Below, one piece after another: positions 17,602-53,959 of a stretch of 61,811 bases of DNA (its first letter is position 1; each line of letters opens with the position of its first letter). Both the position numbers and the translations under genes were made by a program. The stretch lies in assembly GCA_005791575.1 (NCBI GenBank), contig SXWA01000004.1, positions 1 through 61,811 of the forward strand. Direction: 5' to 3'. Source of the stretch: Planctomycetaceae bacterium. Lineage in GTDB: Bacteria > Planctomycetota > Planctomycetia > Pirellulales > UBA1268. Below the pieces are notes generated by a model. That model was given only the letters and a program-made list of their open reading frames with translations. It searched no databases and was not told the DNA's origin.

Positions 17602-18003
17602 TCAGACCGAGTCGCGTCGCCGCCCGCTGCCGCGGCAGATCATGAACAGCCCCAAGCCGGCGGCCAGCACGGCCACGGCATACGAGGGCATGTATTTGAG
17701 TTGGCCTCCGACCGGGCCGCTCGATTCACCCGCTGCCGCAGCGGCTGCCTGAGCCGGGGGCGGTGCACCACCCCCGGCGGCAAAATTGGCAGCCATCTGC
17801 GCTCCGGGCACGTTGGCCATGGCTGCCGGATTCCCGGCCGTCACCGGCTTGCCCGCCTGCTCGAGCGGTGGGGCGAGGAGCGCGGCCCCACCCTGCGCGA
17901 ACACCGGAGTCCCGGCCGCCCCGGCCAGCGCGACTGCCACGACGGCAACCACCGCAAGGGGGCCGGAGGATTTCGGGCGTTGACGATGGACTGCGGTGAC
18001 CAT
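17602..18003 (-). CDS. Small exported/membrane protein
   Basis: Signal peptide (VFA-Q), Ala/Pro-rich body, C-terminal TM followed by basic tail RGSGRRR. Alternative start at 18036. Confidence 0.6.
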   Translation of the reverse strand: MVTAVHRQRPKSSGPLAVVAVVAVALAGAAGTPVFAQGGAALLAPPLEQAGKPVTAGNPAAMANVPGAQMAANFAAGGGAPPPAQAAAAAAGESSGPVGGQLKYMPSYAVAVLAAGLGLFMICRGSGRRRDSV

Positions 18004-18053
18004 GGTACCTGTTCCCTTGGGAGGCAATCGTGCCATGTATGCCGGCGGCCTGG

Positions 18054-18172
18054 CTGGCTGTGGAAAAACAGCCTGCCGCACCTCAGGGATGAGGTGCCGG
18101 GAGTACAACTCCCGTGAAAAGCGCAGCTTTTCGGGTGGCCAAAGGCCAAGGATGGACTTTGGCCACGGGCTG
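18054..18172 (-). mobile_element. 119-bp MITE copy
   Basis: Homologous to 5998-6116; flanked by CTGG/CTAG; in a divergent intergenic region. Confidence 0.8.
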
Positions 18173-18280
18173 CTAGCCTCCACCCGCGCGACCACACCCG
18201 GAGGGTACCATTCCCGGGAGCGGACGTCAGCCGGCCGGCCCGATCCCGCCGCCGCCCCGCCCTCCGCCGGAGAAAACACC

Positions 18281-19480
18281 ATGGCCGCCAAACGTGCCCG
18301 ATCAGCCGCCCGCGGGGTCGCCGCCCGACCCTCTTCCCAAGGGGCCGCCGCCGACCGCTCCACCACCGTGCCCCGCGAAAAACTCCCGGCCGTGGACCGC
18401 AAGACGCTCGGGCTGATCGTCGAGCTCGCCGATCAGGTCGCCACCGCCGCGACCAAACGCCGCGACCCGTGGCTCGACATCCCGGCCCGCAACCTCTCCA
18501 ACGTCCGCTTCAACAAGGCCCACAAGATCATCGAGATGGGGGGGCAGACGAACCGGCGGCAGCTGTTCAATCTCTCGCAGGCCAAGAGCTACATGCAGAC
18601 GCTGCTGGTCGCCACCGGCTGCAAGTCGCTCATCGACCAGCAGAAGTCGACCAGCATCCGCGGTCTGTACTACCTGCTCAAGCACACGATCGACGGCACC
18701 CGCGAGGAGACGTTCGCCACACAGGAGGAGTGCGATCCGATCATCGAGGATCTCGAGGTCACCCTGGAGAGCCTCCGCGAGGAACTCCATGTCTACGCCA
18801 GTAACCGCGGGGGCATGGTCGGCCCGATCACGCTCGTCGACTCCGGCGACGAGATCGACTGCTCGCGGATGGGCTCGGGTGGGTACAGCATCCCGTCGAT
18901 CGTCGAGGCGAACGTCATCCGCTTCAAGGAATGCGACGCCAAGTTCATCCTCCACGTGGAGAAAGACACCGTCTGGCGGCGTTTCAACGAGGACAAGTTC
19001 TGGCGGAAGCACTCCTGCCTCCTCACGCACGGCGGCGGGCAGCCGCCACGGGGCGTGAGGCGGATGCTCTACCGACTGCACCACGAGCTCAAGCTGCCGG
19101 TCTACTGCCTGCTCGACAACGATCCCTGGGGCTACTACATCTATTCGGTGCTCAAGCAGGGCTCGATCAACCTCGCCTACGAATCGAAGCGGATGGCGAT
19201 TCCCGAGGCGAAGTTCCTCGGGTTGCGGAGCCGCGATTACCAGCGCTGCGGTCTCAGCCCGAGCGTGCAGATCGCCCTCGCCGACACCGACATCAAACGG
19301 GCCAAGCAGATCGCCGCGTATCCCTGGTTCGCCGGCAAGAAGGCCTGGCAGAAGGAGATCGAGACGATGCTCGCCAACGGCTTCAAGCTCGAGGTCGAGT
19401 CGCTGATCTCCAAGGACATCAGCTACGTCACCGAGGTGTACACCCCCGAACGGCTGTCCGAGGCCGACTGGCTCGACTGA
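18281..19480 (+). CDS. top6A: DNA topoisomerase VI subunit A (Spo11-like)
   Basis: SIRGLYY (catalytic Tyr region), Toprim motifs VEKD and LLDNDPWG, GGGQPPRGVRR, KLEVESL. Confidence 0.9.
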   Translation: MAAKRARSAARGVAARPSSQGAAADRSTTVPREKLPAVDRKTLGLIVELADQVATAATKRRDPWLDIPARNLSNVRFNKAHKIIEMGGQTNRRQLFNLSQAKSYMQTLLVATGCKSLIDQQKSTSIRGLYYLLKHTIDGTREETFATQEECDPIIEDLEVTLESLREELHVYASNRGGMVGPITLVDSGDEIDCSRMGSGGYSIPSIVEANVIRFKECDAKFILHVEKDTVWRRFNEDKFWRKHSCLLTHGGGQPPRGVRRMLYRLHHELKLPVYCLLDNDPWGYYIYSVLKQGSINLAYESKRMAIPEAKFLGLRSRDYQRCGLSPSVQIALADTDIKRAKQIAAYPWFAGKKAWQKEIETMLANGFKLEVESLISKDISYVTEVYTPERLSEADWLD

Positions 19481-19500
19481 CCCCTCCGCGCTCTCCGCCC

Positions 19501-19538
19501 CTCACGGCCCCCGACCCTCCTCACGGCCCCCGACCCCG
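19501..19538. repeat. 19-bp tandem duplication between convergent genes
   Basis: CTCACGGCCCCCGACCC(T/C)C twice. Confidence 0.7.
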
Positions 19539-19576
19539 CCCCTCACTGCCCACCCACCCGCACCCCCGCCCCACGG

Positions 19577-20413
19577 TCAGGCTTCCTCGCGGAGCAGCGG
19601 TGGCGGATCCTCCAGGTCGTCGAGTTCCGGCGGGAGCTGGATCTGCCGCATCGTCTCGTCGGTGCGCCGCATCCCCTCGGCCACCTCGTCGACGCGCTTC
19701 GCCAGATCGCCGACATCGCGCCGCGCCACCGCCCCTTCGGCGAGGGCGGCGATCTTCGATTCCAGTCGCTCGACCTCCGCGACGATGACGCCCAATTTCC
19801 GCTGCGCCTCGTCGATGTTGCCGAGCCGTTCACGCGTCGTCCGGAGGTCGTCCTCGAGGACGGCACGCAGCTCCGCCGACTTGGTCGCGTCGGCCGGGAG
19901 GGCGGTGAGGCGTTTTTCCAGGCTCGCGATCCGTTGGCGGATGCCGGCTTCATCGGTGTGGCCGATGAAATCGGAGAGCGACTGGGCGCCGCGGATCATC
20001 CGCAGATGCCCCCACAGCAGCCGATCGAGCGACTCGAGCGAGCTGGTGTCGATCCCTCCGCGCAGGCCGGCGGCGAGATCGATGAGCCGCTCACAGTGGG
20101 CCTGGAGTTGGTCGAACCGCTGCCGCAGTTCAGGGGTGAGCGAGCCACGGATTCGCTCGAACGCCTGCCGCGACCCGACGGCCCGTTCGGCACGCCGCGC
20201 CTTCGCATCCTGGGCGTCGATCGCCGACCGGAACCGGTCACTGGCAAGCATGCTCGCCAGGTAGTAGACCTCACCCGCCGCCACCAACGGGAGGACGACC
20301 CCGGGGAATCCGCTGATCAGGGCGGCCGCCACGCCGCCGCCGACGAACAGCAGGTTCCACTTCGTGGAGAAGGCGGCCCCCAGATAGCTGCCAATGCGAC
20401 CCAACACGTCCAT
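19577..20413 (-). CDS. Membrane-anchored coiled-coil hypothetical protein
   Basis: Two N-terminal hydrophobic segments, then long heptad-rich helices; last gene of the pspA operon. Confidence 0.8.
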   Translation of the reverse strand: MDVLGRIGSYLGAAFSTKWNLLFVGGGVAAALISGFPGVVLPLVAAGEVYYLASMLASDRFRSAIDAQDAKARRAERAVGSRQAFERIRGSLTPELRQRFDQLQAHCERLIDLAAGLRGGIDTSSLESLDRLLWGHLRMIRGAQSLSDFIGHTDEAGIRQRIASLEKRLTALPADATKSAELRAVLEDDLRTTRERLGNIDEAQRKLGVIVAEVERLESKIAALAEGAVARRDVGDLAKRVDEVAEGMRRTDETMRQIQLPPELDDLEDPPPLLREEA

Positions 20414-20433
20414 TCGCTCCCGCGCCCGCGGCG

Positions 20434-21390
20434 TCACCCCGGGCCGTTGGGCCGTTGGGCCTCGGCCTCGATCCGTTCGATCCGTTCCTGCAACCGGTGG
20501 ACCTGCTCGTGGAACCAGGGCTGCGACTGGGTCTCGCGCGCCGGTGCCGAGGCCGCCGGCATGTGGATCTCCTCGGCGATCCGCCCCGGTGTCGTCGCCA
20601 TGACGAACACCCGGTCCCCAAGATACACCGCCTCCTCCACCGAATGGGTCACGAAGAGCACGGTCGCCTCGACTTCGTGCCACAGCCGCACCAGCAGATC
20701 CTGCATGTCGAGCCGCGTGGCGGGGTCGAGTGCGCCGAACGGCTCGTCCATGAGGATCACCCGGGGGCGGAGGATCAGCGTCCGGGCGATCGCCACCCGC
20801 TGCCGCATGCCACCCGACAGTTCGTGGGGATACTTGCCGGCATCGCGGAGGGGATCGAGGCCCACCCGGGCGATCCAGTCGAGGGCCTCCGCCTCGCGGG
20901 TGCGGCGCGCCACCCCACGGCATTCGAGCCCGAAGGCGACATTGTCGACCACCGTTCGGTTGTCGAAGCTCGTGTAGTCCTGGAACACCATTCCCCGGTC
21001 GGCGCTGGGGCCGACGACCGGTTGACCGAGCACCGTCACGGTGCCACTGGTGGGCGGATGCTGCGGCTCGAGCCCGGCCACGAGCCTGAGCACGGTGCTC
21101 TTGCCGCACCCGCTCGGCCCGAGGAACGACGAGATCTCGCCGTGCCCGACCAGGTCGGGGATCGTGAACGAGACATGGTCGATCGCCACCGCCGTGCGAC
21201 CGCCGCCGGAGGTGTAGATCTTGGTGACGTCGCGGAACTCGACCGCCGCCGGACGCTCCGCAGCGGGAGCCGCCTGGTCTCCCGCCGGAGCAGACGGCCC
21301 CGGGGCGGCCCTCGGCTGGCACGGAGCCGTGGTCGGCGGGACGGCGGGGGCCGCCCCCTCCGGGACACGTCCGGCCGGGGATTCACTCAT
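20434..21390 (-). CDS. ABC transporter ATP-binding protein (TauB/SsuB/NrtD-like)
   Basis: GPSGCGKS, LSGGMRQR, ILMDEPFGALD, FVTH. The start overlaps the permease stop. Confidence 0.95.
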   Translation of the reverse strand: MSESPAGRVPEGAAPAVPPTTAPCQPRAAPGPSAPAGDQAAPAAERPAAVEFRDVTKIYTSGGGRTAVAIDHVSFTIPDLVGHGEISSFLGPSGCGKSTVLRLVAGLEPQHPPTSGTVTVLGQPVVGPSADRGMVFQDYTSFDNRTVVDNVAFGLECRGVARRTREAEALDWIARVGLDPLRDAGKYPHELSGGMRQRVAIARTLILRPRVILMDEPFGALDPATRLDMQDLLVRLWHEVEATVLFVTHSVEEAVYLGDRVFVMATTPGRIAEEIHMPAASAPARETQSQPWFHEQVHRLQERIERIEAEAQRPNGPG

Positions 21391-22316
21391 GGCGCCGTTC
21401 CCCGGCCGCGGAACCACCCGCCGATGACGTCATGCACGAGCCAGCGGACGAAGCGCGGGAGAACGCCCCGGCCGCCATAGCGGTGCGGGAACAGATCGCA
21501 CTGCAACCACCACAGCGCCCGATCGATGCAGTAGGCCACCAGCGGGATGATGATCAGCACGATGAGGATCGGCTCGCGCTGCCCGCGGCGCTGGGAGACA
21601 TTGATCAGGTCGCCGAGTCCGCCGGTATCACCGCCGAGCTTCACCACCTCCGCCAGCATCACGTAGCCGAAGGCGATGCCGAACAGCAGGCGGAGCGAGT
21701 TGAACACCGCCGGGGCGGCCAGCGGCAGCAGGACCTTCAAGATGATCTGCAGCCGTGAGGCCCCGAGGGTGAGCGCCGTGTCGACGTAGCGCTGCGGCAC
21801 CTCGCGCACGGCGGCGGTGGTGTCGCTGACGACGAAGGCGACGCTGGCGATGAACAGGAACATCACCTTCTGAAGTTCACCGATCCCGAAGAAGAAGAAC
21901 GTCAGGGGGATCAGCGCCGCGACCGGGATGTTGCGGCCGAAGATGGTGAGCGGGGCGAGGAAGGCTCGCAGCTCGGCGAAACAGGCCGCCAGCACCCCGA
22001 GCGGCACGCCGACGGCCGCCGCCAGACCGAATCCGAGGCAGACCCGCCGCAGCGTCACCACCGTGTTGGCGGGCAACCGGCCCGTGCCGAACACGGCGGG
22101 CACGGCCCGGACCGTCTCGGCCGGGCTGGGGAGCGTGGCCGGACCGATGAACCGGCTCTCCGCCTCCCCCGCGGTGGCGAGAAACCACAGCGCCAGCACC
22201 AGGGCGATGCACGTCACGCCCCAGATCGCCCCCGTGGCCATGGAGGTCTCCCCCCGCAGCGGCCGGACCGCGGCGCGCTGCGGCGACGCCACGGGTGGAG
22301 TCTCAGAGGGGCTCAT
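21387..22316 (-). CDS. ABC transporter permease (TauC/SsuC-like)
   Basis: LPSPAET, P..ALIPL, EAA-like loop YVDTALTLGAS, AEVV; ATGA overlap with the upstream gene. Confidence 0.92.
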   Translation of the reverse strand: MSPSETPPVASPQRAAVRPLRGETSMATGAIWGVTCIALVLALWFLATAGEAESRFIGPATLPSPAETVRAVPAVFGTGRLPANTVVTLRRVCLGFGLAAAVGVPLGVLAACFAELRAFLAPLTIFGRNIPVAALIPLTFFFFGIGELQKVMFLFIASVAFVVSDTTAAVREVPQRYVDTALTLGASRLQIILKVLLPLAAPAVFNSLRLLFGIAFGYVMLAEVVKLGGDTGGLGDLINVSQRRGQREPILIVLIIIPLVAYCIDRALWWLQCDLFPHRYGGRGVLPRFVRWLVHDVIGGWFRGRGTAP

Positions 22317-24076
22317 TCCTTCTCCGCGGAGTAGACCTTGATCTCCACGCGGCGGTTGAGGGCGTGGTTGTCGGGGTGGTCGTCGTCGGCCGGCCGGTCC
22401 CACCCGAGGCCATCGACGGCGAAGCGGTTGTCGTCGAGCTTGAACTTCTCGACGATCGCATCCTTCACCGCGCGCGCCCGCTCGAGCGACAGTTCCTTGA
22501 CCATCGCCGCCGGGACCGATCCCTTCATCGAGCCGTCGGTGTGGCCCTCGACGACGATCCGGGCGTTGCCGAACTGCTCGGCGAGCGCCGCCACTTCATC
22601 GACGACCAGATCGACGCGCGGATCGTAGGGTTCCTCCACGTCTTGGCCGTCGAGCCGCCGGATGACCTTCTTGCGGAGGTTGGCACTGTTGGGGAAGAAA
22701 TGGATGACGATGGTGTTGGTGAGGATCTCGTCGTTCTCGGCCCTGATCTCCGCGACCGTCTTCGGCACCAGCGTCGCGGCGTACTCGTCTTTCGTCTCCA
22801 GATACTTCGGCTCGAGCCCGAGTTTCTGGATCACGGAGAAGTCCATTACCTGATCGAACGGAACCGGGTTGTTCGCGATCGCCCCCACGCGCCGGTAAAG
22901 GTAGTAGGCCTGCTTCCAGATCCGCTCGAAATTGGCGGGATTGTTGCGGTTGATGAAGAACTGGTAGTTCTCGGCCCAGTTGGTCGAGTGGGCGTCGCCG
23001 AGCATCGAGAGGGCGTCGGCGGCGGGGATCGTGTAGCCATCGGCCATCAGTTGGGCGACACTCTTCTTCGCCTCCTCGCTCTTGAGATCGCCCATCGCGT
23101 CGAAGATGCCGCGCACGATGGCCTCGATCACGTCCGGATGATCCTTGGCGAAGTCGGCCCGGGCGAACCATACGTCGGCGATCAGGCGGTTGGCCGTCTG
23201 CGTGGTGACGAGCATCCGGTTGCCCTTCGCCTCGGCGAGGTTGTAGATGTCGGGGGCCCACGACACGCACCCGGCGATGCTCTTGTCGCGGTTGAACGCC
23301 GCCGCCGCCTCGAAGGCGGTCGTCACGTAGATCATCTCGACGTCGGCCGGCTGCAGGCCGCCCGCCACCAGCATGTTGAGAGCGAAGAACTGGCTCGGGG
23401 AGTTCTGGGCCATGACCAGTTTCTTGCCGGCGAGGTCCTTGACGGTCTTGATCGAATCGCGGACGACGATCCCGTCACCGCCGTTGGAAAAGTCCACCTG
23501 CTGGTAGACGCGCGGCATGATCCGCGAATCCTTGGCGAAGCTGTCGACGAACAGCGGCAGCATGTCGAGCGTCGCCCAACCGATGTGGACCTCGCCCGCC
23601 GCGTAGGCGTCGCGCATCTGCACCGGATCGTCGATGAGAACGAGTTCGACCTTGAACGGCTTGCCACCGGGCGCCTGCCAAACCTTGCCGGGCTTGAAGC
23701 CGCCGTTGGCGTGGATGATCGGGCTCCAGCCCGCCCAGACATTGAGGGCGAAGCGAACAGTGTCGTCGACCATCGGCTTGTAGCCGCTCACCCCCTTGAC
23801 CGGCGGCAGTTTCTCCGCCGGTTTGAAGGTGTATTCCTTCACGGTCGTGGGAACGGCGACGTCGGGAGCCTCGGTCATCGGTTCCTCGGCACCCCCCTCC
23901 CCTGCCCCACCACTCAGACCGCCGCCACCCGGCCCGCCACCGGCGACAGGGGCCGGCCGCTGAGGTTGGCCGGGGCGTTCCCCGAACATCCCCGCACGCC
24001 ATGCGGCCAGCGCGACCAGACCGAGAATCACCGCCCAGACAGCCAACCAGAACGGGGCCTTGGGTTCGCTCGCCAT
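22313..24076 (-). CDS. NMT1/SsuA-type substrate-binding protein fused to a C-terminal OmpA-like domain
   Basis: N-terminal TM; WAGW, DFSNGGDGIV, TVKDLAGKK, VSWAPD; OmpA_C motifs VEGHTDG, LSLERARAV, NRRVEI. Confidence 0.9.
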   Translation of the reverse strand: MASEPKAPFWLAVWAVILGLVALAAWRAGMFGERPGQPQRPAPVAGGGPGGGGLSGGAGEGGAEEPMTEAPDVAVPTTVKEYTFKPAEKLPPVKGVSGYKPMVDDTVRFALNVWAGWSPIIHANGGFKPGKVWQAPGGKPFKVELVLIDDPVQMRDAYAAGEVHIGWATLDMLPLFVDSFAKDSRIMPRVYQQVDFSNGGDGIVVRDSIKTVKDLAGKKLVMAQNSPSQFFALNMLVAGGLQPADVEMIYVTTAFEAAAAFNRDKSIAGCVSWAPDIYNLAEAKGNRMLVTTQTANRLIADVWFARADFAKDHPDVIEAIVRGIFDAMGDLKSEEAKKSVAQLMADGYTIPAADALSMLGDAHSTNWAENYQFFINRNNPANFERIWKQAYYLYRRVGAIANNPVPFDQVMDFSVIQKLGLEPKYLETKDEYAATLVPKTVAEIRAENDEILTNTIVIHFFPNSANLRKKVIRRLDGQDVEEPYDPRVDLVVDEVAALAEQFGNARIVVEGHTDGSMKGSVPAAMVKELSLERARAVKDAIVEKFKLDDNRFAVDGLGWDRPADDDHPDNHALNRRVEIKVYSAEKE

Positions 24077-24144
24077 CGTGTGCCTCGGAAACGTGGAAGG
24101 GGATCGGGCCGGTGCCTGACACCGTACCGGCGGGTCGGTGCAGT

Positions 24145-24450
24145 TCAGCCGCGGAACTTCGTCTGTGGCCGGGCCCGGCCCGCCATGTGGAGCATGTTCA
24201 TCAGATCGTAGGCGGTGACCTCACAGAGCAACTCGGTCACCTTGTCGTGCGCCTCGGGGGAAAGCATCGGCTCCACTTCCTTCATCAGGGTCACCAGCCG
24301 CCGCTCCTGCGCCTCGAGCTCGCCGGAATCGACCCGACCATCGGCGACCGCATCGACGAAGGAATCGAGCTTGCGGGCGTACTCCTGGAGAAGCGGCGAC
24401 TCGCTGGAGGGGTCGAACCACGGGGTCTTGGGGGCGTGTGCCTTGGCCAT
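24145..24450 (-). CDS. Small helical hypothetical protein (ADGRVDSGE motif)
   Basis: 101-aa ORF with GGAG upstream, inside the operon. Confidence 0.75.
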   Translation of the reverse strand: MAKAHAPKTPWFDPSSESPLLQEYARKLDSFVDAVADGRVDSGELEAQERRLVTLMKEVEPMLSPEAHDKVTELLCEVTAYDLMNMLHMAGRARPQTKFRG

Positions 24451-24531
24451 GGGGGAACTCCTGGGAATGGTGGAGGGATTCGTGGGGAACGGCGCCGACC
24501 GGCTGCCTGCCGGGGCCATGTCGGTTGCGGG

Positions 24532-26523
24532 TCAGGATCCCGCCATCAAACGCAGTTCGGCCATCCGCTCCTGCAGCGTCGCCCGGCCGCCAGCCTTGCT
24601 GATGGCTTCGCGCCAGCGATCGGGGAGGAACCGCTTCTCGGTGCACTCGAGGACAGCGGCGATCTCCTGGGCTTCCTTCTCCAGGCCCTGTGCCGAAGGG
24701 AGGAAATCGTCGATCGCCGCCTGCAGGTCGGTCACCGCGATCTCGTCGGTCGTCGGGACCGGGCGGCCGGCATCAGCCTCGGCCGCGGCGCGCTCGAGCC
24801 CCTTGCGCCGGGCGGTGAGGACGATGCTCTCGATGTCGGCGCCGGAGAGCCCCAGTTCCAGATCGACCGGACCGGGGAGGCCGGGAGCGAGCCGCACGTG
24901 GCACTTGCGTGCCATCGCCTGGAACATCGCCTCCATCTCCGCCTGGTCGTGCGGATAGAAGAGGGGGATGTGCACCTCCGCGCGCCCCTGCCGCTTGAGG
25001 TCGATCGGGAGCAGATCGGGCCGGCTGGTGAGCAGCATCCAGACGATCTTGCCACGGTATCTCGTGTCGCCCATCTGGCGGGCGATCATCGAGAACACGC
25101 GGGCCGACGTGCCGGAATCACCGTCAGACTGCCGGTTCCCCAGGGCTGCATCCGCCTCGTCGATGATCACCACCACCGGCCCGAGGCTGCGCAGCACCCC
25201 GAGGGCGTGCTCGAGGTTGCCCTCGGTCTCGCCGACGTATTTGCTGCGGAAATTCTTCAGCACCGCGCAGGGGATGCCCACGCTGCCCGCATAACACTCG
25301 GCGATGAAACTCTTGCCGGTGCCGACGGGACCGCAGATCAGGTAGCCCATCGGTGCGCTCTCGAGTTGGCCGCGACGGATCGCGCGGGCGTCGGTCTCGA
25401 GACGCTGCTTGGCCGCCTCATGACCGGCGACATTGTCGAGCGTGAGCCGGGGCTGGATGAACTCGATGAGCCCGCGGCACGACCTTTCGATGAGATCCTT
25501 CTTCTTGGCGGCGAACTCCGGGCCATCAGGGGGCGAGCCCTCGCGGGCCGAGAGGGTGAGGATCGCGCGGATGCTCTCCAGCGTGAGCCCCGCCGACAGG
25601 GTCGCCATCCGCTCGACCGCCGGCAGATCGCCGGCCGGCACACCGACGCTCCGCGCCGTGGCCATGGCAAACCGCTCGCGCTCGGCCGGCGCGGGCAGCG
25701 GCACCTCGATCGCGGTCACGGCGGGGCTGGTCACGAGCCGCGAGTGGACCTCCGCCATGGCATCGGCGAGGAGCACGATCGCCACGTTCACCCGGCGCAA
25801 CAATGGGTTCGACGCCCAGCCCACCAGCCGTACCAGCCGCCCCGCCGTGCCCCGCGAGGCGGATGCGGTGTCGCCATCCGGCACCAAGTACTGGGCATGG
25901 TCGAGCAGGACCGCGATTTTCTTTCGCTGCTCCGGCGGGTCGGTGAGGTTCCGCTCCAGGAGCGCGTCGATGGAGGCCAGCGCCGCATCCGGCTCCCGGG
26001 GCCACCCCGCGGCGTTGCCGAGCCGCTCGGAGAGCCACTGGACCATCGTCCGCAGACGATTGGCATCCGACCCCGCCAACGGCCGCAACCCCTTCCCCAC
26101 GTCGTAGGCCAAGACGACGTCCCAACTGCCGAAGACTTCGCGCGCGAGGAACTCTGGCACGGTGCCATACCCGACCATCCCGTCGGCGGCCCCCGCCGGT
26201 CCACCGGCCGTACCGACCGCGCTGGCGGACTGCCCTGTCCCCGGGGGCGCCAGGGGCACGAGATCACGGACGTTGCCATGGAGCAGGAACACGCAACTCG
26301 TGCCGGAGAGGTAGGCATCGCCCAGGCGCTCGGCCCAGGCCGGGCACCAGTCGGGCAGGGCTCCACCCGTCCGCGACCCGCTCCCCGTGCCGACGCCGGC
26401 TTTCACGCCATTGCCTGTCGGACGGTTGGCGTCACCGTGCGGGGCGACGGGGGCGACGCCCGGCTCCGGCCTGTTCGCCGTCGACTGAGCTGCCGATGAC
26501 TGACTCGGGGAATCCTGGCTCAC
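24532..26523 (-). CDS. Classical-clade AAA+ ATPase with a degenerate N-terminal AAA-like module
   Basis: Walker A GPVGTGKS, pore loop SKYVGETE, Walker B IIDEAD, SRH TSRPDLLPIDLKRQGR. The N-half has FLLHGNVRD and LLDHAQYL in place of Walker motifs. Confidence 0.9.
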   Translation of the reverse strand: MSQDSPSQSSAAQSTANRPEPGVAPVAPHGDANRPTGNGVKAGVGTGSGSRTGGALPDWCPAWAERLGDAYLSGTSCVFLLHGNVRDLVPLAPPGTGQSASAVGTAGGPAGAADGMVGYGTVPEFLAREVFGSWDVVLAYDVGKGLRPLAGSDANRLRTMVQWLSERLGNAAGWPREPDAALASIDALLERNLTDPPEQRKKIAVLLDHAQYLVPDGDTASASRGTAGRLVRLVGWASNPLLRRVNVAIVLLADAMAEVHSRLVTSPAVTAIEVPLPAPAERERFAMATARSVGVPAGDLPAVERMATLSAGLTLESIRAILTLSAREGSPPDGPEFAAKKKDLIERSCRGLIEFIQPRLTLDNVAGHEAAKQRLETDARAIRRGQLESAPMGYLICGPVGTGKSFIAECYAGSVGIPCAVLKNFRSKYVGETEGNLEHALGVLRSLGPVVVIIDEADAALGNRQSDGDSGTSARVFSMIARQMGDTRYRGKIVWMLLTSRPDLLPIDLKRQGRAEVHIPLFYPHDQAEMEAMFQAMARKCHVRLAPGLPGPVDLELGLSGADIESIVLTARRKGLERAAAEADAGRPVPTTDEIAVTDLQAAIDDFLPSAQGLEKEAQEIAAVLECTEKRFLPDRWREAISKAGGRATLQERMAELRLMAGS

Positions 26524-26630
26524 GACCGCCTCGGCGCAAGGAAGGGGAAACGATGGTGCCGGGCTGCCCCCGGCGCTCCGGAAGAGGATGCCGTCATGAA
26601 TGCCTCATGGCGGCGCACCAGACCGCGACC

Positions 26631-27380
26631 TCAACCGGAGATCTGCCGGATCCGGTCGGAGCCGAGATGCTTCTCGTCGTCGGTCACACCGGAGGTCTCC
26701 GGCGTCACCATCCCCATCTCGCGCTCGAAATCACGCAGGGCAGCATCGGCCATCTGGGCCTCCACGCGCTGCTCGTCCTTGATTTTGTCGAGCCCATCAC
26801 CAGAGAGGTCGGCCGCCACTCGCACCTTGGCGCGGTTGAGGCCGATTTTGTCCTGGATCACGTCTTCGATCTGGCCGAAATCCGTCGTTACGTCGAACTT
26901 GAAGCTCGTCGCCAACTTGGCCAATTCGGCCTCGGCACGCGACATCTTCAGGTCGGCGTCGTACTTCTGGATCTTGTGCTTCAGCTCCGCGAGCTTCTTG
27001 GTGGCGTGCTTGACCTTGGTGACATTGTTGCCGTAGGCGGTCTCGTGGAGCTTGAGCTGGGCCTCGTTCTCTGCCATGTCCTTCTTGGCGCTCTGGAGCT
27101 CCAGGGCGAACCGCGCCGCGGTCTCCCGCTCGCCGACCTGAAGGTAGGCCTTCACCTGCGCCTCGAGCTTCGCGACATGCTGTCGATCACCCTCGACCTG
27201 CCGCATGACGCGTTCGACGAGGGCCCGGTACTGCTCGAGCCCCTCGCGCCCCTCCTTCATCTGCTCGACCGCCTTGTCGTATTCGTACTGGAGCTGGGCG
27301 ATCGGATCGGCCGTCCAGAAATAATTGGCGATCTTGTTCATCTGGGCCGCGAGGGCCTTCCACAGCTTGCCGATGATCAT
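26631..27380 (-). CDS. pspA: PspA/IM30 (ESCRT-III superfamily) protein
   Basis: 249 aa, amphipathic N-terminal helix, DP motif (TADPIAQLQ), long coiled coil, AYLQVGERETAARFA, C-terminal ALRDFEREMG. Confidence 0.8.
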   Translation of the reverse strand: MIIGKLWKALAAQMNKIANYFWTADPIAQLQYEYDKAVEQMKEGREGLEQYRALVERVMRQVEGDRQHVAKLEAQVKAYLQVGERETAARFALELQSAKKDMAENEAQLKLHETAYGNNVTKVKHATKKLAELKHKIQKYDADLKMSRAEAELAKLATSFKFDVTTDFGQIEDVIQDKIGLNRAKVRVAADLSGDGLDKIKDEQRVEAQMADAALRDFEREMGMVTPETSGVTDDEKHLGSDRIRQISG

Positions 27381-27642
27381 CGGACCACCTCCAGGAAACA
27401 CGGTCGGGGGCGCGCAAGTCCCACGCAAAACATTCGTCTTACCCCCCTGATGCCAGACCGTCAAACACCCCGCGTGACCGCTCCAAGCCTCACGATCATC
27501 GCCAGCGCCGGCGGCCGGAAAGCCGCGGACTCTCCCCGGATGCGCCGGAGGCCACCGTGCCGGCGCTGCCAACGTGCTTCGGATCCGCGGCGCGGGGAGT
27601 GGCCGCAGCCCCCGGCACGCCACCATTCCGGAGCCCCTCCCG

Positions 27643-28911
27643 TCAGGGAGTCACGACCACGCCGGGATGGGCCGCGCGGAACGCCGCCCGGGCATCACCG
27701 TCGATCGGTGTGAAACTGACGTCGAGGGCGCGTAGCGCCGGAAGCCGCCCCACCGCCTCGAGGCCCGTTGCCGAGATCTTCGTGTTGGCGAGGTCGAGCG
27801 TGGCGAGCTTGCCGAGCCCCGCGAGGCGGGCAAGGCCGGCATCCGTCACGCGGGTGTTGCGCAGCACCAGCTTCGTGAGCGCACCGAGCCTGCCGACCGT
27901 CTCGAGCCCCTTGTCACCAACCTTCGTGTCCCAGAGGTCGAGGTCGGCGAGCTTGGCGAGGTCGCCGAGGTGGGCCACCCCCGCATCGCCCACACCGGTC
28001 TCCGCCAGGTCGAGGAGCACCAGGTTGGTGAGGCCGGCGACGTGCGCGAGCGCCGCATCGTCGATCAATGTCCCGCGCAGCTCCAGTCGCTTGAGCTTGC
28101 TCAGCCCCTTGAGGTGCGCGAGGCCGTCGGCACCGATGAACGTGCGCATGACGTTGATCTCGTCGATGTCGGTCTTGCCGGCGAATGGTGCCAGCCCCGC
28201 ATCGGTGATCTGGCCATCTTCGGCGGCGAAGCCCCGCAGCTTCGGCAACCGGGCGATCGCCGCCAGGCCGCGGTCGGTGACCCCGGGGCAACGGAGCTTC
28301 ACCCGTTCGAGACTCGCCATCCCCGCCACGTGCTCGAGCCCCGCATCCCCGACCAGCGAGCAGCCCCGGAGATCGAGCACCCGCAGCTTCGTCAGCGGCG
28401 CCAGATGGGCGAGCCCCGCGTCGGTGAAGTTGTTGTAGAGCAGCACCAGCTGCTGCAGCCCGGTCATCGTCGCCACGGTCTCGAGCGCGGCGTCGGAGAG
28501 GTTGGAACTGCGACGCAGATTGAGCACCTTGAGGTTCCGCAGTTTGGCGAGCGCGCGGATCCCGGCGTCGGTGACGTCGGTGTTCTCGAGGACCAACTGC
28601 TGCAGCCCTTCCAGCGACGCCAGGGCCGGCATCCCCCCGTCACCGATCTCCGCCCCCCAGACCTCGAGCGACTCCAGCGCCGGCAACTGCCGCAAAAGCA
28701 CCAGGTCGGCATCGGTGGCGGGCCGGTTGGCGAGGTCGACCTGGGTGACCCGTCCATCGGCGCCGTATTCCACGGTGCCGCCACGGGCCTTGACCATCTT
28801 CACCGCGGCAGTCTCGGCAGGGAGCGGCTCGAGTGCCCAGGCCGATCCAACCCGGCCGAACACCGTCAGTGCGACCGCAAGCACCCCACCCCAACCCACG
28901 ATGCACTTCAT
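27643..28911 (-). CDS. Secreted leucine-rich-repeat protein (~24-aa LRRs)
   Basis: Signal peptide, then repeated L..L.L..T.vtDaGl..La.L..L units. Confidence 0.92.
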   Translation of the reverse strand: MKCIVGWGGVLAVALTVFGRVGSAWALEPLPAETAAVKMVKARGGTVEYGADGRVTQVDLANRPATDADLVLLRQLPALESLEVWGAEIGDGGMPALASLEGLQQLVLENTDVTDAGIRALAKLRNLKVLNLRRSSNLSDAALETVATMTGLQQLVLLYNNFTDAGLAHLAPLTKLRVLDLRGCSLVGDAGLEHVAGMASLERVKLRCPGVTDRGLAAIARLPKLRGFAAEDGQITDAGLAPFAGKTDIDEINVMRTFIGADGLAHLKGLSKLKRLELRGTLIDDAALAHVAGLTNLVLLDLAETGVGDAGVAHLGDLAKLADLDLWDTKVGDKGLETVGRLGALTKLVLRNTRVTDAGLARLAGLGKLATLDLANTKISATGLEAVGRLPALRALDVSFTPIDGDARAAFRAAHPGVVVTP

Positions 28912-28957
28912 GCTCGACTCCTCGACCGACCGATCGCCTCTGGACACGCCGCGCGGC

Positions 28958-30373
28958 TCAGGCCTTCCAGCCGTCCCGGGCGGTCGGGCGGATGATCGAC
29001 TCGACCTCGGGCGCGTTCTTGGCGAGGAGCTTCACCGGATCCCACTCGATCTTCTTGCCCATCGTGTCTGGCGTCTCGGCGGCCCACACGGCAAGGTTGC
29101 CGAGGAGAATCGTCTCAGTCAGCGGACCGGAGTAGTCCGGGAAGTTGGACATCGGCTGCGGACCACCCTTGATGGCGTTGACCCACTCGATGAAGTGACC
29201 GGGCGACGGGGTGAACTCGGCGTCGGCGGGCGTGGTGCCGCTCTTCAGCTTGAAGCCCTTCTCGCAGTAGTCGCCGGGAGCATAGAGGGTGTCCTTCTCG
29301 CCGATGCAGAGGATGCCGCTCGAGGCCGTCTTGAAGGGCTGCGACTCCTCCTTGCCGTCGGCATCCTTCTTCACCTCGCCGGGGAAACCGGCGAACAGCC
29401 CCACGTCCGGCAGCTTGCCGCCGTCATACCACTTGACCTTCAACCCCGTCCGCTGCCCGATGGCGGGAAAGTCGAAGTCGATGATCGACCACTTGGGATA
29501 GGTCTCCTTGTTGTGCCCGCTGGTCAGAGCCTGGACGCTGGCGGGATCACGGAGATTGAGGGCCATGAACGGCATGTTGAAGGTGTGACAGGCCATGTCG
29601 CCGAGGGCCCCGGTGCCGAAGTCCCAGAAGCCGCGCCAGCTGAAGGGGTGATAGCCGGTGCCGTAGGGCCGGACCGGCGCCGGGCCGAGCCACAGGTTCC
29701 AATCGAGGTTCGGCGGTACCGCCGCCTCTTCGGGCCGCCCACCACCCTGCGGCCACACCGGCCGGTTGGTCCAGACGTGCAGTTCCTTGACCGCGCCCAG
29801 CCCGCCCGACTTGATGAATGCCGCCGCCTTCCGCAGCGAATTCTCGGCGGTGCCCTGATTGCCCATCTGCGTGGCGAGCTTCTTGGCGCGGGCCAGTTCG
29901 CCCATCAGCCGGGCCTCGGAGATCGCCCGGGTGAGGGGCTTCTGGCAGAAGCAGTGTTTGCCCATGCCCAACGCCATCATCGCGGCGGCGAAGTGGGTGT
30001 GGTCCGGCGTGCTGACGGTGACGGCATCGACTTCCTTGCCCATCTCTTCGAGCATCTTCCGGTAGTCCTGGAAGGTCTTCGCCCCCTCGAAGGCCTTCTC
30101 GCCACGCTTGAGTTGGTTGGAATCGACGTCAGCGACGGCCACGACCTTGCCGTTGCGGCCGGCGTCGGCCGAGTCGCTCTGCCCCTTGCCACCGATGCCG
30201 ATGCAGGCGAAGCGGATCTCGGAGTTGGCACTCGTGGCCGGCTTGTCCTCGGCCCGCACCTCGGGGGCGATCCACACGCCACCGGCGATGCCGGCGATCG
30301 ACCCGGCACCAGCGGCACCGACGGCGAGGAAGTCGCGGCGGGAGGTGTTGGAGGGGGAGCGACGCGTGGCCAT
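28958..30373 (-). CDS. Tat-exported Gfo/Idh/MocA oxidoreductase
   Basis: SRRDFL Tat motif, IGIGGKG, STPDHTH, CQKPL, GDMACH. Confidence 0.93.
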   Translation of the reverse strand: MATRRSPSNTSRRDFLAVGAAGAGSIAGIAGGVWIAPEVRAEDKPATSANSEIRFACIGIGGKGQSDSADAGRNGKVVAVADVDSNQLKRGEKAFEGAKTFQDYRKMLEEMGKEVDAVTVSTPDHTHFAAAMMALGMGKHCFCQKPLTRAISEARLMGELARAKKLATQMGNQGTAENSLRKAAAFIKSGGLGAVKELHVWTNRPVWPQGGGRPEEAAVPPNLDWNLWLGPAPVRPYGTGYHPFSWRGFWDFGTGALGDMACHTFNMPFMALNLRDPASVQALTSGHNKETYPKWSIIDFDFPAIGQRTGLKVKWYDGGKLPDVGLFAGFPGEVKKDADGKEESQPFKTASSGILCIGEKDTLYAPGDYCEKGFKLKSGTTPADAEFTPSPGHFIEWVNAIKGGPQPMSNFPDYSGPLTETILLGNLAVWAAETPDTMGKKIEWDPVKLLAKNAPEVESIIRPTARDGWKA

Positions 30374-30721: not shown

Positions 30722-30819
30722 GCACGCGCATCTCATCCCCGGATACCGGCCATCCCGGCATGCCGCCGACACCGGGATGCCGGACCGGCGACTCCGCAGA
30801 GAAGACTCCCCCATCAAAG

Positions 30820-30894
30820 GGTGGCTGACGGGACTCGAACCCGCGACCCCTAGAATCACAATCTAGTGCTCTAACCAACTGAGCTACAGCCACC
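30820..30894 (-). tRNA. tRNA-His(GUG)
   Basis: GGTGGCTGTAGCTCAGTTGGTTAGAGCA CTAGA-TT-GTG-AT-TCTAG ...GTTCGAGTCCCGTCAGCCACC; encoded G-1:C73 pair; CCA not encoded. Confidence 0.97.
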
Positions 30895-53669: not shown

Positions 53670-53789
53670 ATCGGGAGGCCTCCCGCGGGTCAGGAGGGGA
53701 GGCGGCAGCCACCCCGCCAGCGGCGTCTTTTGGCCGCCTCCCGCGGCTGGTAGACTCCCGAAAGTCGATGGCCCCGTATCGCAGTCGAT

Positions 53790-53863
<74 letters not shown>

Positions 53864-53959
53864 TTCCCGTTTTCGCCGGAACGATGCACGTTTTGAGCGG
53901 CTTTACCAGCCCGGCCGGCACGGTGAACAGCCGCACACCTGCCCGGGATGTCACGGCAC

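Follow-up and report, generated by a model that had tools for sequence, protein, structure and literature searches.

How polymers of the bacterial PspA/Vipp1 proteins come apart is an open question. It is raised by a gene cluster in which a gene for a PspA-type protein is followed by genes for an AAA ATPase and for transporter-like proteins: what could such a set of proteins do together? The cluster occupies positions 19577-27380 of a 61,811-nucleotide stretch of DNA (hereafter, the window; contig SXWA01000004.1 of assembly GCA_005791575.1, Planctomycetaceae bacterium). This DNA has a G+C content of ~70% and belongs to the metagenome-assembled genome (MAG) of a freshwater planctomycete, the assembly of which is 74.5%-complete. 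A preliminary description had suggested that the AAA protein disassembles PspA polymers in a manner comparable to Vps4 and that a wall-anchored ABC module supplies a signal or a lipid-related substrate. It had also guessed that comparative surveys might already have noted such neighbourhoods. This was right: Ravi et al. 2024 (mSystems, PMC11237479), in the excerpts of that paper available to us, describe this operon type in silico, with the same gene set and the same parallel to Snf7/Vps4. On balance, we consider it somewhat probable that our locus is a planctomycete member of this PspA-centred envelope system and that it works as proposed there.

Gene content and transcription of the cluster

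Seven genes fill the interval, in the order PspA>AAA>small protein>SBP-OmpA>permease>ATPase>CC, where SBP stands for solute-binding protein and CC for the transmembrane coiled-coil protein:

26631..27380, minus strand: pspA, divergent PspA/IM30 protein of the ESCRT-III superfamily, 249 aa (PF04012; amphipathic N-terminal helix; C-terminal tail with K-H-L-G)
24532..26523, minus strand: tandem AAA ATPase, 663 aa (PF00004 at residues 395-520)
24145..24450, minus strand: small conserved cytoplasmic helical protein, 101 aa (no Pfam family)
22313..24076, minus strand: SBP-OmpA fusion, membrane-anchored and periplasmic, 587 aa (NMT1/SsuA/TauA-like SBP; OmpA-like peptidoglycan-binding domain at residues 491-571)
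21387..22316, minus strand: ABC permease, NitT/TauT type, 309 aa (BPD_transp_1, E 3.5e-20)
20434..21390, minus strand: ABC ATPase, TauB/SaoA/NtrD-like, 318 aa (ABC_tran, E 1.4e-27)
19577..20413, minus strand: membrane-anchored coiled-coil protein, 278 aa (no Pfam family; hydrophobic hairpin at residues 21-57)

All seven genes are co-oriented, as had been described before, and the two ATGA overlaps reported for the cluster could be read directly at 22313-22316 (SBP stop and permease start) and 21387-21390 (permease stop and ATPase start). The remaining intergenic gaps measure 107, 81, 68, and 20 bp, and a sequence scan found no terminator-like site on the minus (coding) strand within the cluster. 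The earlier statement that pspBC and pspF are missing also held: according to Pfam, none of the seven genes encodes PspB, PspC or a sigma-54 activator. Moreover, no match to PspB/PspC (PF04024, PF06667) was found in the whole assembly, incomplete as it is; a genome-wide search for pspF was not made. No two-component system is encoded in the cluster.

The start codon of pspA (ATG at 27380) is preceded by the ribosome-binding site GGAGG. Between pspA and the next gene upstream, which encodes a leucine-rich-repeat (LRR) protein, lies a spacer of 262 bp with a promoter-like element of its own:

27436..27464, minus strand: promoter-like element TTGACG - 17 nt - TAAGAC, ~55 nt upstream of the pspA start

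The upstream regions of orthologous loci do not align except for this one conserved block, which most of the 10 compared contain. The window holds one match to the element, against 0 expected from 100 shuffles, and we read it as the putative promoter of the operon. A scan of positions 19000-28000 with the sigma-70 consensus returned 0 promoter-like sites; it missed the conserved element because the latter ends in C. Inspection of the upstream alignments by eye revealed no conserved -24/-12 pattern of a sigma-54 promoter, for which no formal search was made. Taken together, the seven genes are real and probably form one transcription unit that is driven from the conserved element upstream of pspA.

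Conservation of the gene arrangement

The strongest argument for a functional unit comes from the conservation of linkage. We compared 17 loci from related genomes, 10 of which contain all seven genes in the same order. One further locus is cut by the contig end after the SBP gene, one lacks a detectable CC gene only, three retain only PspA, AAA, and the small gene, and one retains only PspA and AAA; the remaining locus has a 27%-identical AAA and none of the partners. A larger set comprised 80 loci from species-representative genomes, mostly labelled Planctomycetota, with AAA proteins 48-83% identical to that of the window. At least two contigs are represented twice in this set (L040/L074 and L043/L083), so that the numbers given here are not wholly independent. 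PspA was located upstream of the AAA gene in 67 of the 69 loci that could be evaluated, and the small gene downstream of it in 73 of 74. Among the 38 loci with at least 7.5 kb of downstream sequence, the SBP gene was found in 28 and the permease, ATPase, and CC genes in 27 each. These four genes are missing as a block in ~10 of the 38 loci, where PspA, AAA, and the small gene are kept. The same association is seen at the genome level. An AAA orthologue is present in 22 of 41 related genomes, and the PspA subtype occurs in the same 22 plus one (G025); all AAA-bearing relatives therefore carry it (22/22), and 18 of the 19 relatives without the AAA lack it. Operons very similar to ours, with AAA proteins at 73-77% identity, were also noted in MAGs labelled Candidatus Kuenenia stuttgartiensis, Chitinophaga, Planctomicrobium piriforme, and Pirellulales; these labels are clearly unreliable.

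The linkage extends to distant relatives. We analyzed 80 metagenome loci whose AAA proteins are ~40% identical to an Opitutales-type protein, itself 29% identical to the AAA of the window. They were screened with hidden Markov models (HMMs) built only from planctomycete proteins. The arrangements found were PspA>CC>AAA (15 loci), PspA>AAA>CC (15), PspA>AAA (12), CC>AAA (5), AAA>CC (5), and AAA alone (28, many of them on short contigs). Restricting the count to loci with flanks of at least 1.8 kb upstream and 1 kb downstream left 33, of which 23 had PspA, 17 had CC, and 10 had neither. As judged from these comparisons, the conservation counts for the arrangement lie far beyond chance, and the core across phyla consists of PspA, the tandem AAA, and the CC protein, accompanied by a swappable SBP-fold module. 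A neighbourhood analysis had been proposed in the preliminary description as a check of its operon; both the gene calls and the strongly conserved linkage (PspA next to AAA in 67/69 and 23/33 loci) support one conserved unit.

The distribution of the system is a different matter. Of 301 Planctomycetota genomes sampled, 44, that of the window among them, encode the N-domain of the AAA; in three large families it was not found (0/24, 0/23, and 0/15). Named members of the AAA family include Opitutales and Armatimonadota. The system is therefore patchy within the Planctomycetota and present in other phyla, which argues against a special tie to planctomycete membrane architecture. The earlier rationale, which had invoked the invaginated membranes of these bacteria, is not supported on these grounds.

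A Cdc48/VAT-like AAA protein

The proposed parallel to Vps4 was based on a classical AAA module with the aromatic pore loop KYVG. We found this loop within the pore loop 1 motif SKYVGETE, which is kept across the family together with Walker A (GPVGTGKS), Walker B (IIDEAD), and the arginine-finger region (KRQGR). Judging by these motifs, the protein is a classical AAA ATPase with its catalytic motifs intact. Its layout comprises a degenerate N-terminal AAA-like domain (residues ~60-345), the active classical AAA module (~390-580), and a conserved C-terminal extension. The only Pfam families detected were AAA, AAA_22, and AAA_16, and none was assigned to the N-terminal ~330 residues. Aligned by hhalign, the N- and C-terminal domains match with E 0.004 and a probability of 8.4%; the alignment places DHAQ on DEAD and then runs through the sensor-1 and 'IEVPLP' strands to the lid. 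The first module has lost the Walker B glutamate, and we see no P-loop motif at the expected place.

We typed the protein by HMM score ranks, profile matches to solved relatives, and domain content. HMMER aligns the family profile collinearly to the final part of VAT D1 (through the D1 lid) and to all of D2. The best solved relatives in a profile search of the PDB are VAT, Cdc48, and p97 (E 1e-41 to 1e-35), and the first 60 comprise Cdc48, VAT, p97, AFG2, NVL, Rix7, NSF, and i-AAA proteins, with no Vps4 among them. The NCBIfam models rank in the order CDC48 (59 bits), PAN (48), FtsH (37), and CdvC (36), all of them far under their cut-offs. The MIT and Vps4_C domains were not detected by Pfam, nor was CDC48_N. 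The features of Vps4/CdvC, that is, an MIT domain, a single AAA module, and Vps4_C, are therefore not found, and the CdvC model NF041006 gives 36 bits against a cut-off of 650. Membership in Cdc48/VAT proper is likewise not indicated, with 59 bits for TIGR01243 (cut-off 802.65), no N-domain family, and DHAQ in the first module. We classify the protein as a Cdc48/VAT-like tandem AAA with a predicted degenerate first domain, which resembles the Cdc48/VAT family without belonging to it. It may be called Vps4-like at most by analogy: the classical AAA module with its aromatic pore loop stands, but the architecture, with two AAA modules and neither MIT nor Vps4_C, is not that of Vps4, and the best solved relatives are VAT, Cdc48, and p97. 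A search of viral contigs for relatives of the AAA came back empty.

PspA and its C-terminal tail

The 249-aa protein matches PF04012 over residues 2-198 with 45.5 bits (cut-off 33.9; E 9e-12) and hence belongs to the PspA/IM30 family; in a whole-genome search, the pspA locus scored 42.4 bits. Its match to the solved Vipp1 (sll0617) is weak (E 0.14), and no transmembrane segment was predicted in it. We aligned the AAA-linked PspA proteins of the planctomycete type with those of the distant type, which are ~22% identical to them. Both share helix alpha-5 ('A-x-x-AL-x-x-F'), a variable linker, and a conserved motif near the C-terminus. Scored within the last 30 residues, K-x-[LMI]-G is present in 85 of 85 full-length planctomycete-type AAA-linked PspA proteins (a set that contains duplicates), and [KR]-x-[LMI]-G is present in 34 of 38 distant ones. 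The background frequency of the latter is 3.8% among 1233 ends of other open reading frames in the same loci. Three PspA proteins without a link to the AAA, two in G025 and one membrane-anchored paralogue in the genome of the window, do not have K-x-[LMI]-G (0/3). AAA-linked PspA proteins thus appear to have a common C-terminal [KR]-x-[LM]-G motif, and this tail is a natural candidate for the recognition site of the motor.

The paralogue mentioned above is a second PspA of 263 aa (L208:1471-2262, minus strand, corresponding to G000:C117). It matches PF04012 with 51.6 bits, has an N-terminal hydrophobic segment, and is devoid of the [KR]-x-[LM]-G motif. In the related, AAA-less genome G025, a PspA 52% identical to that of the window is encoded in a PspA-PspA-Band_7-Band_7 cluster (L210, G025:C11, 3645-8652, minus strand); it has no C-terminal tail.

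The transmembrane coiled-coil protein

In the CC protein, the N-terminal hydrophobic hairpin is followed by a long helical domain, which is predicted to be cytoplasmic, and by a conserved acidic, Pro-rich C-terminal tail. An AF2 model (pLDDT 80.6) is all-helical. With an HMM built from the planctomycete CC family, homologues were found beside the AAA in 40 of the 80 distant loci.

We also considered whether the CC protein is a Snf7/ESCRT-III homologue, as described for its counterpart in the literature, and did not adopt this assignment. An hhalign comparison to PspA profiles gave a probability of <1%, a profile search against the PDB yielded no support for Snf7/ESCRT-III, and neither Snf7 nor PspA_IM30 is among the 25 families listed for 28 CC members in a Pfam scan with E up to 10. 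Foldseek returned no match for the AF2 model at E <= 1e-3, and the best VIA matches (Z 9.6) are to unrelated helical proteins. None of these tests was supportive, yet none of them provides evidence against homology. A comparison of language-model features placed the Rv2743c (PspM) family closest among the named clusters (score 0.89), which we treat as a lead only.

A recurrent SBP-fold module

The periplasmic SBP-OmpA protein has one transmembrane segment, at its N-terminus (residues 5-32). Pfam detected OmpA, NMT1, NMT1_2, and Phosphonate-bd, and all NCBIfam SBP and OmpA families scored below cut-off. The same is true for the permease, which gave SaoP, TauC, and NtrB-like matches. At the level of TauABC/SsuABC equivalogs, the scores remain far lower than required (TauB, the best NCBIfam model for the ATPase, 206.5 against a cut-off of 357, SaoP 113 against 295, SsuA family 57 against 163.5), so that the transporter parts appear to be related to NitT/TauT importers at the family level only.

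The ABC permease and ATPase are absent from 11 of the 38 evaluable planctomycete loci. In the distant PspA>AAA>CC lineage, SBP-OmpA homologues (23-28% identity over residues ~11-585) follow the CC gene in 16 loci. In all five of these that were checked further (L168, L172, L178, L184, L190), unrelated genes come after the SBP gene (HrpB, arginase, enoyl-CoA hydratase, and others), with no ABC permease or ATPase; the two distant SBP-like proteins that were scanned both retain the OmpA domain. In the PspA>CC>AAA lineage, a SBP_bac_11+VWA gene and a SBP_bac_11 gene precede pspA, again without ABC parts. Both are present in 10 loci and one of them in two loci cut by the contig end, that is, in 12 of the 12 evaluable loci out of 15. 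The same pair was found in one planctomycete locus (L097:11888-16274, plus strand), where it replaces SBP-OmpA and the ABC parts at the same operon position (PspA>AAA>SBP-VWA>SBP>CC>small). These two proteins are 57-59% identical to their counterparts in the distant lineage, which suggests module exchange between lineages.

From these distributions, an SBP-fold extracytoplasmic protein with an anchoring or adhesive domain is a recurrent, exchangeable part of the system, and the ABC permease and ATPase are optional. Of the wall-anchored ABC module assumed before, the SBP-fold part is thus also met without permease and ATPase; nothing points to lipid as its substrate. As a separate observation, one locus (L112:12155-13093, plus strand) has an extra gene between the small gene and SBP-OmpA, for a 312-aa lipoprotein-like protein with a MIDAS motif of the VWA type (DTSGSM), and similar gaps of ~1 kb occur in L116 and L124.

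The small 101-aa protein

For the small gene, orthologue alignments favour a start at 24450 over 24519. Invariant positions of the protein are W11, F31, D37, E60-P61, and a C-terminal F-x-G. An HMM search revealed no homologue in the 80 distant metagenome loci, and the protein is best regarded as a planctomycete-clade addition. Its AF2 model (pLDDT 76) is a helical hairpin without a fold match (Foldseek best E 2.4; VIA best Z 4.9). The possibility of an MIT-like or TerB-like protein found no support; a single one of 29 members gave a TerB match, at E 0.077. A record of 298 aa from a single-member cluster (P0287) has the AAA C-terminus joined in frame to the small protein, which is either a natural fusion or the result of a missed stop. 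In a search for longer versions of the small protein, six proteins were found, and the five besides P0287 look like frame-shifted run-throughs of the operon. One single-member record was considered too thin, and a fusion to the AAA was rejected as evidence.

Flanking genes

Outside the cluster, the following features were annotated in the window:

17996..19480, plus strand: topoisomerase VI subunit A / Spo11-type gene (TOP6A-Spo11_Toprim, E 5.6e-57, Pfam run on 18380..19477)
27643..28947, minus strand: secreted-looking LRR protein, 434 aa, directly upstream of pspA
28958..30373, minus strand: GFO/IDH/MocA-family oxidoreductase, 471 aa, upstream of the LRR gene (N-terminal twin-arginine-like stretch RRDFL)
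30819..30893, minus strand: tRNA-His(GTG) (Rfam gathering score)
53789..53864, plus strand: tRNA-Arg(CCG) (Rfam gathering score)

The convergent topoisomerase VI-A gene downstream marks the end of the unit and is kept as a neighbour of the cluster across the family. Such type IIB topoisomerases are better known from archaea and plants. The LRR gene is kept upstream in many loci of the same family, not beyond it. The two tRNA genes are the only Rfam matches of the window at gathering score.

Proposed mechanism and alternatives

If the system works as proposed, the CC protein would be inserted in the cytoplasmic membrane, its helical domain facing the cytoplasm, and serve as membrane receptor or co-polymer of PspA. 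PspA would bind to the stressed membrane via its amphipathic N-terminal helix and polymerize like ESCRT-III-type proteins. The hexamer of the Cdc48/VAT-like AAA would then engage a PspA subunit, most likely via the C-terminal [KR]-x-[LM]-G tail, and thread it through the KYVG pore loops at the expense of ATP, leading to disassembly or turnover of the polymer. This would be a functional analogue of the action of Vps4 on ESCRT-III, performed by a different, Cdc48-type motor. Planctomycetes have peptidoglycan, and the SBP-OmpA protein could be fixed both to the membrane (by its N-terminal transmembrane segment) and to the peptidoglycan (by OmpA); it may provide a periplasmic input by sensing a ligand or the geometry of the envelope. 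In the variant of the window it could also feed a TauABC-like importer. The 101-aa protein may assist the AAA or PspA as a cofactor specific to this clade.

Several points weigh against this model. Neither PspA nor CC was detected in 10 of the 33 evaluable distant loci, and according to Pfam, its neighbours there include Band-7/SPFH proteins in two loci (L160, L165) and FecR-domain proteins in three (L159, L197, L206); the motor is therefore not exclusive to PspA. The evidence for a degenerate first AAA domain is modest (hhalign probability 8.4%, E 0.004), the tail motif is short, with only three PspA proteins without AAA link as controls, and related genomes are not independent samples. Finally, the idea of the CC protein as a second ESCRT-III subunit derives solely from the literature, since no similarity of it to PspA or Snf7 was detected. 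The association with Band_7 and FecR genes instead of PspA agrees with what we regard as the main rival explanation: the AAA could extract membrane proteins in the manner of Cdc48/Msp1, or act as a chaperone in their assembly, within scaffolded patches. It would act on the CC protein, transporter subunits or damaged membrane proteins, with PspA here and Band-7/SPFH proteins elsewhere as scaffolds, so that PspA would merely stabilize the membrane. The AAA-less PspA of G025, 52% identical to ours and encoded with Band_7 genes, fits this explanation as well, as do the nearest solved relatives of the AAA, which are general unfoldases (VAT, Cdc48, p97, AFG2), and a chaperone-like assembly of membrane complexes is also suggested in the excerpts of Ravi et al. 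(PMC11237479). However, no other neighbour accompanies the AAA nearly as closely as PspA does, and the tail motif is conserved on AAA-linked PspA proteins and missing in the three without this link. We consider this rival unlikely on these grounds.

Less likely again is a cluster of two separate units that are co-regulated under stress, namely PspA/AAA for membrane maintenance and a common importer of the TauABC/SsuABC kind. The latter would take up a sulfonate, nitrate or osmolyte-type solute, and its binding protein would be anchored to the wall by chance. The loss of SBP, permease, ATPase, and CC as a block from loci keeping the other three genes would be explained in this way, the transporter parts score best against TauB, TauC, SaoA, SaoP, and SsuA models, and the ATGA overlaps couple the three transporter genes only. 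These matches are all under curated cut-offs, however. SBP-OmpA homologues follow PspA-AAA-CC in the 16 distant loci, the five that were checked being free of ABC parts, and the third lineage combines SBP+VWA and SBP without ABC in every evaluable locus; in L097, this pair takes the place of SBP-OmpA and the ABC genes. A true Vps4/CdvC orthologue of archaeal origin, which would make the locus a transferred ESCRT-III/Vps4 system, is very improbable. A classical AAA with an aromatic pore loop does adjoin an ESCRT-III-superfamily gene, and the excerpts of PMC11237479 report Vps4-like transfers into Planctomycetes, but these have TPR/6TM partners and another architecture. Our AAA has two modules and no MIT or Vps4_C domain, CdvC ranks below CDC48, PAN, and FtsH, and Vps4 is missing from its first 60 solved relatives. 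The most improbable explanation is an anti-phage defence system. A PADLOC analysis gave generic AAA, ABC, and MotB-like matches only (IetA AAA 37.7 bits, ZorB, which is MotB/OmpA-like, 22 bits, and mad3 ABC 88.6 bits), all of them weak and due to generic AAA, ABC or OmpA folds. A defence-specific partner is absent from the cluster, and its stable position between the LRR gene and topoisomerase VI-A across the whole family is unlike that of a defence island.

Returning to PspA turnover by the AAA, a more far-reaching version can be formulated, which we advance tentatively and regard as doubtful in its full extent. The locus could encode a trans-envelope, sensor-coupled bacterial ESCRT-III machine that acquired its motor from a Cdc48-type ATPase independently of Vps4. 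The swappable SBP-fold module (OmpA-tethered or with VWA, with or without ABC importer) would report a ligand or the spacing between wall and membrane; the CC protein would relay this signal to the cytoplasm and nucleate PspA; and recognition of the [KR]-x-[LM]-G tail by the AAA would be the functional counterpart of the MIM-MIT contact and lead to recycling of the polymer. If this were true, ATP-driven turnover of ESCRT-III-type polymers would be no archaeal invention and would have been reached at least twice. For the question raised at the beginning, the operon family offers candidates for the motor, for the motif it recognizes, and for the membrane receptor; therefore, disassembly can be tested with purified proteins. 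The gain from the window itself is limited, since this type of operon is already in print as a prediction and its host is an uncultured freshwater planctomycete known from a MAG. What our analysis adds is the distinction between core and accessory parts, the swappable SBP-fold module, the C-terminal motif of PspA, and a motor that is Cdc48-like, not Vps4-like. The preliminary interpretation was reasonable in outline and needs correction in three respects: what kind of motor is present, how constant the ABC module is, and whether planctomycete membranes explain the system.

Comparison with known systems

ESCRT-III proteins carry a conserved short C-terminal MIM, to which the conserved short tail of PspA may be compared. 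Like the ESCRT-III and Vps4/CdvC systems, the locus encodes a polymer-former of the ESCRT-III superfamily beside a classical AAA with an aromatic pore loop. In contrast to them, its motor has two AAA modules, no MIT domain, and an affinity to Cdc48/VAT, its partner is PspA and not Snf7, and a periplasmic SBP-fold module is present. According to the excerpt of a 2025 review, a Vps4-like ATPase appears to be absent in bacteria (PMC7619361), and the excerpts of Makarova et al. 2024 restrict Vps4-containing ESCRT systems to eukaryotes and archaea, with Cdc48 as the source of Vps4 (PMC11188069). An AAA partner is not mentioned in the excerpts of Popp et al. 2022 (PMC9239133). We found no published functional study of a PspA-linked tandem AAA in literature listings, judged from the openings of abstracts, and to this extent the earlier statement that no functional characterization is known still holds. 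With Cdc48, VAT, and p97 the AAA shares the tandem layout, collinear with the end of VAT D1 and D2; it differs from them by its degenerate first module and by the absence of a detected CDC48_N-type domain.

Proteins of the PspA type are recruited by membrane partners such as PspBC, LiaI, and PspM, as stated in the excerpts of PMC11237479. Our cluster resembles the PspFABC, LiaIH, and ClgR-PspA-PspM-PspN systems in that PspA comes together with a small integral protein of the membrane, the CC protein, which could recruit it. Unlike these classical Psp, Lia, and mycobacterial systems, it has no PspF-type activator, two-component system or PspB/PspC within the cluster (PspB/PspC being absent from the assembly, too, and PspF not having been searched for genome-wide), and it contains an unfoldase-type AAA.

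The closest match is to the operons of Ravi et al. 2024 (PMC11237479). In the excerpts of that paper, PspA is described together with a protein of two AAA modules, the first of them inactive ('inactive classical AAA + classical AAA'), and with a membrane-anchored 'divergent Snf7' ('SIG+TM+Snf7'), and longer operons also contain an ABC ATPase, a permease, and PBPB+OmpA. The example from Candidatus Handelsmanbacteria (OGG56892.1) reads PspA>SBP-OmpA>TM(s)>ABC-ATPase>TM-Snf7>AAA; Clostridium and Archangium are also represented among their examples, and one Opitutales member of the AAA family comes from an isolate. The gene order thus differs from that of the window, and our 101-aa gene is not named in these excerpts. 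For the TM-Snf7 component, the window has a membrane anchor and a helical cytoplasmic domain, the similarity to Snf7 itself not being reproduced. PspA adjoins an AAA with an inactive and an active module, the evidence for the first being modest, and SBP+OmpA, permease, and ATPase are all present. With the CC protein taken as the membrane-anchored helical protein, every component named in the excerpts is found in the window, and the proposal made for both is the same, an ATP-dependent remodelling.

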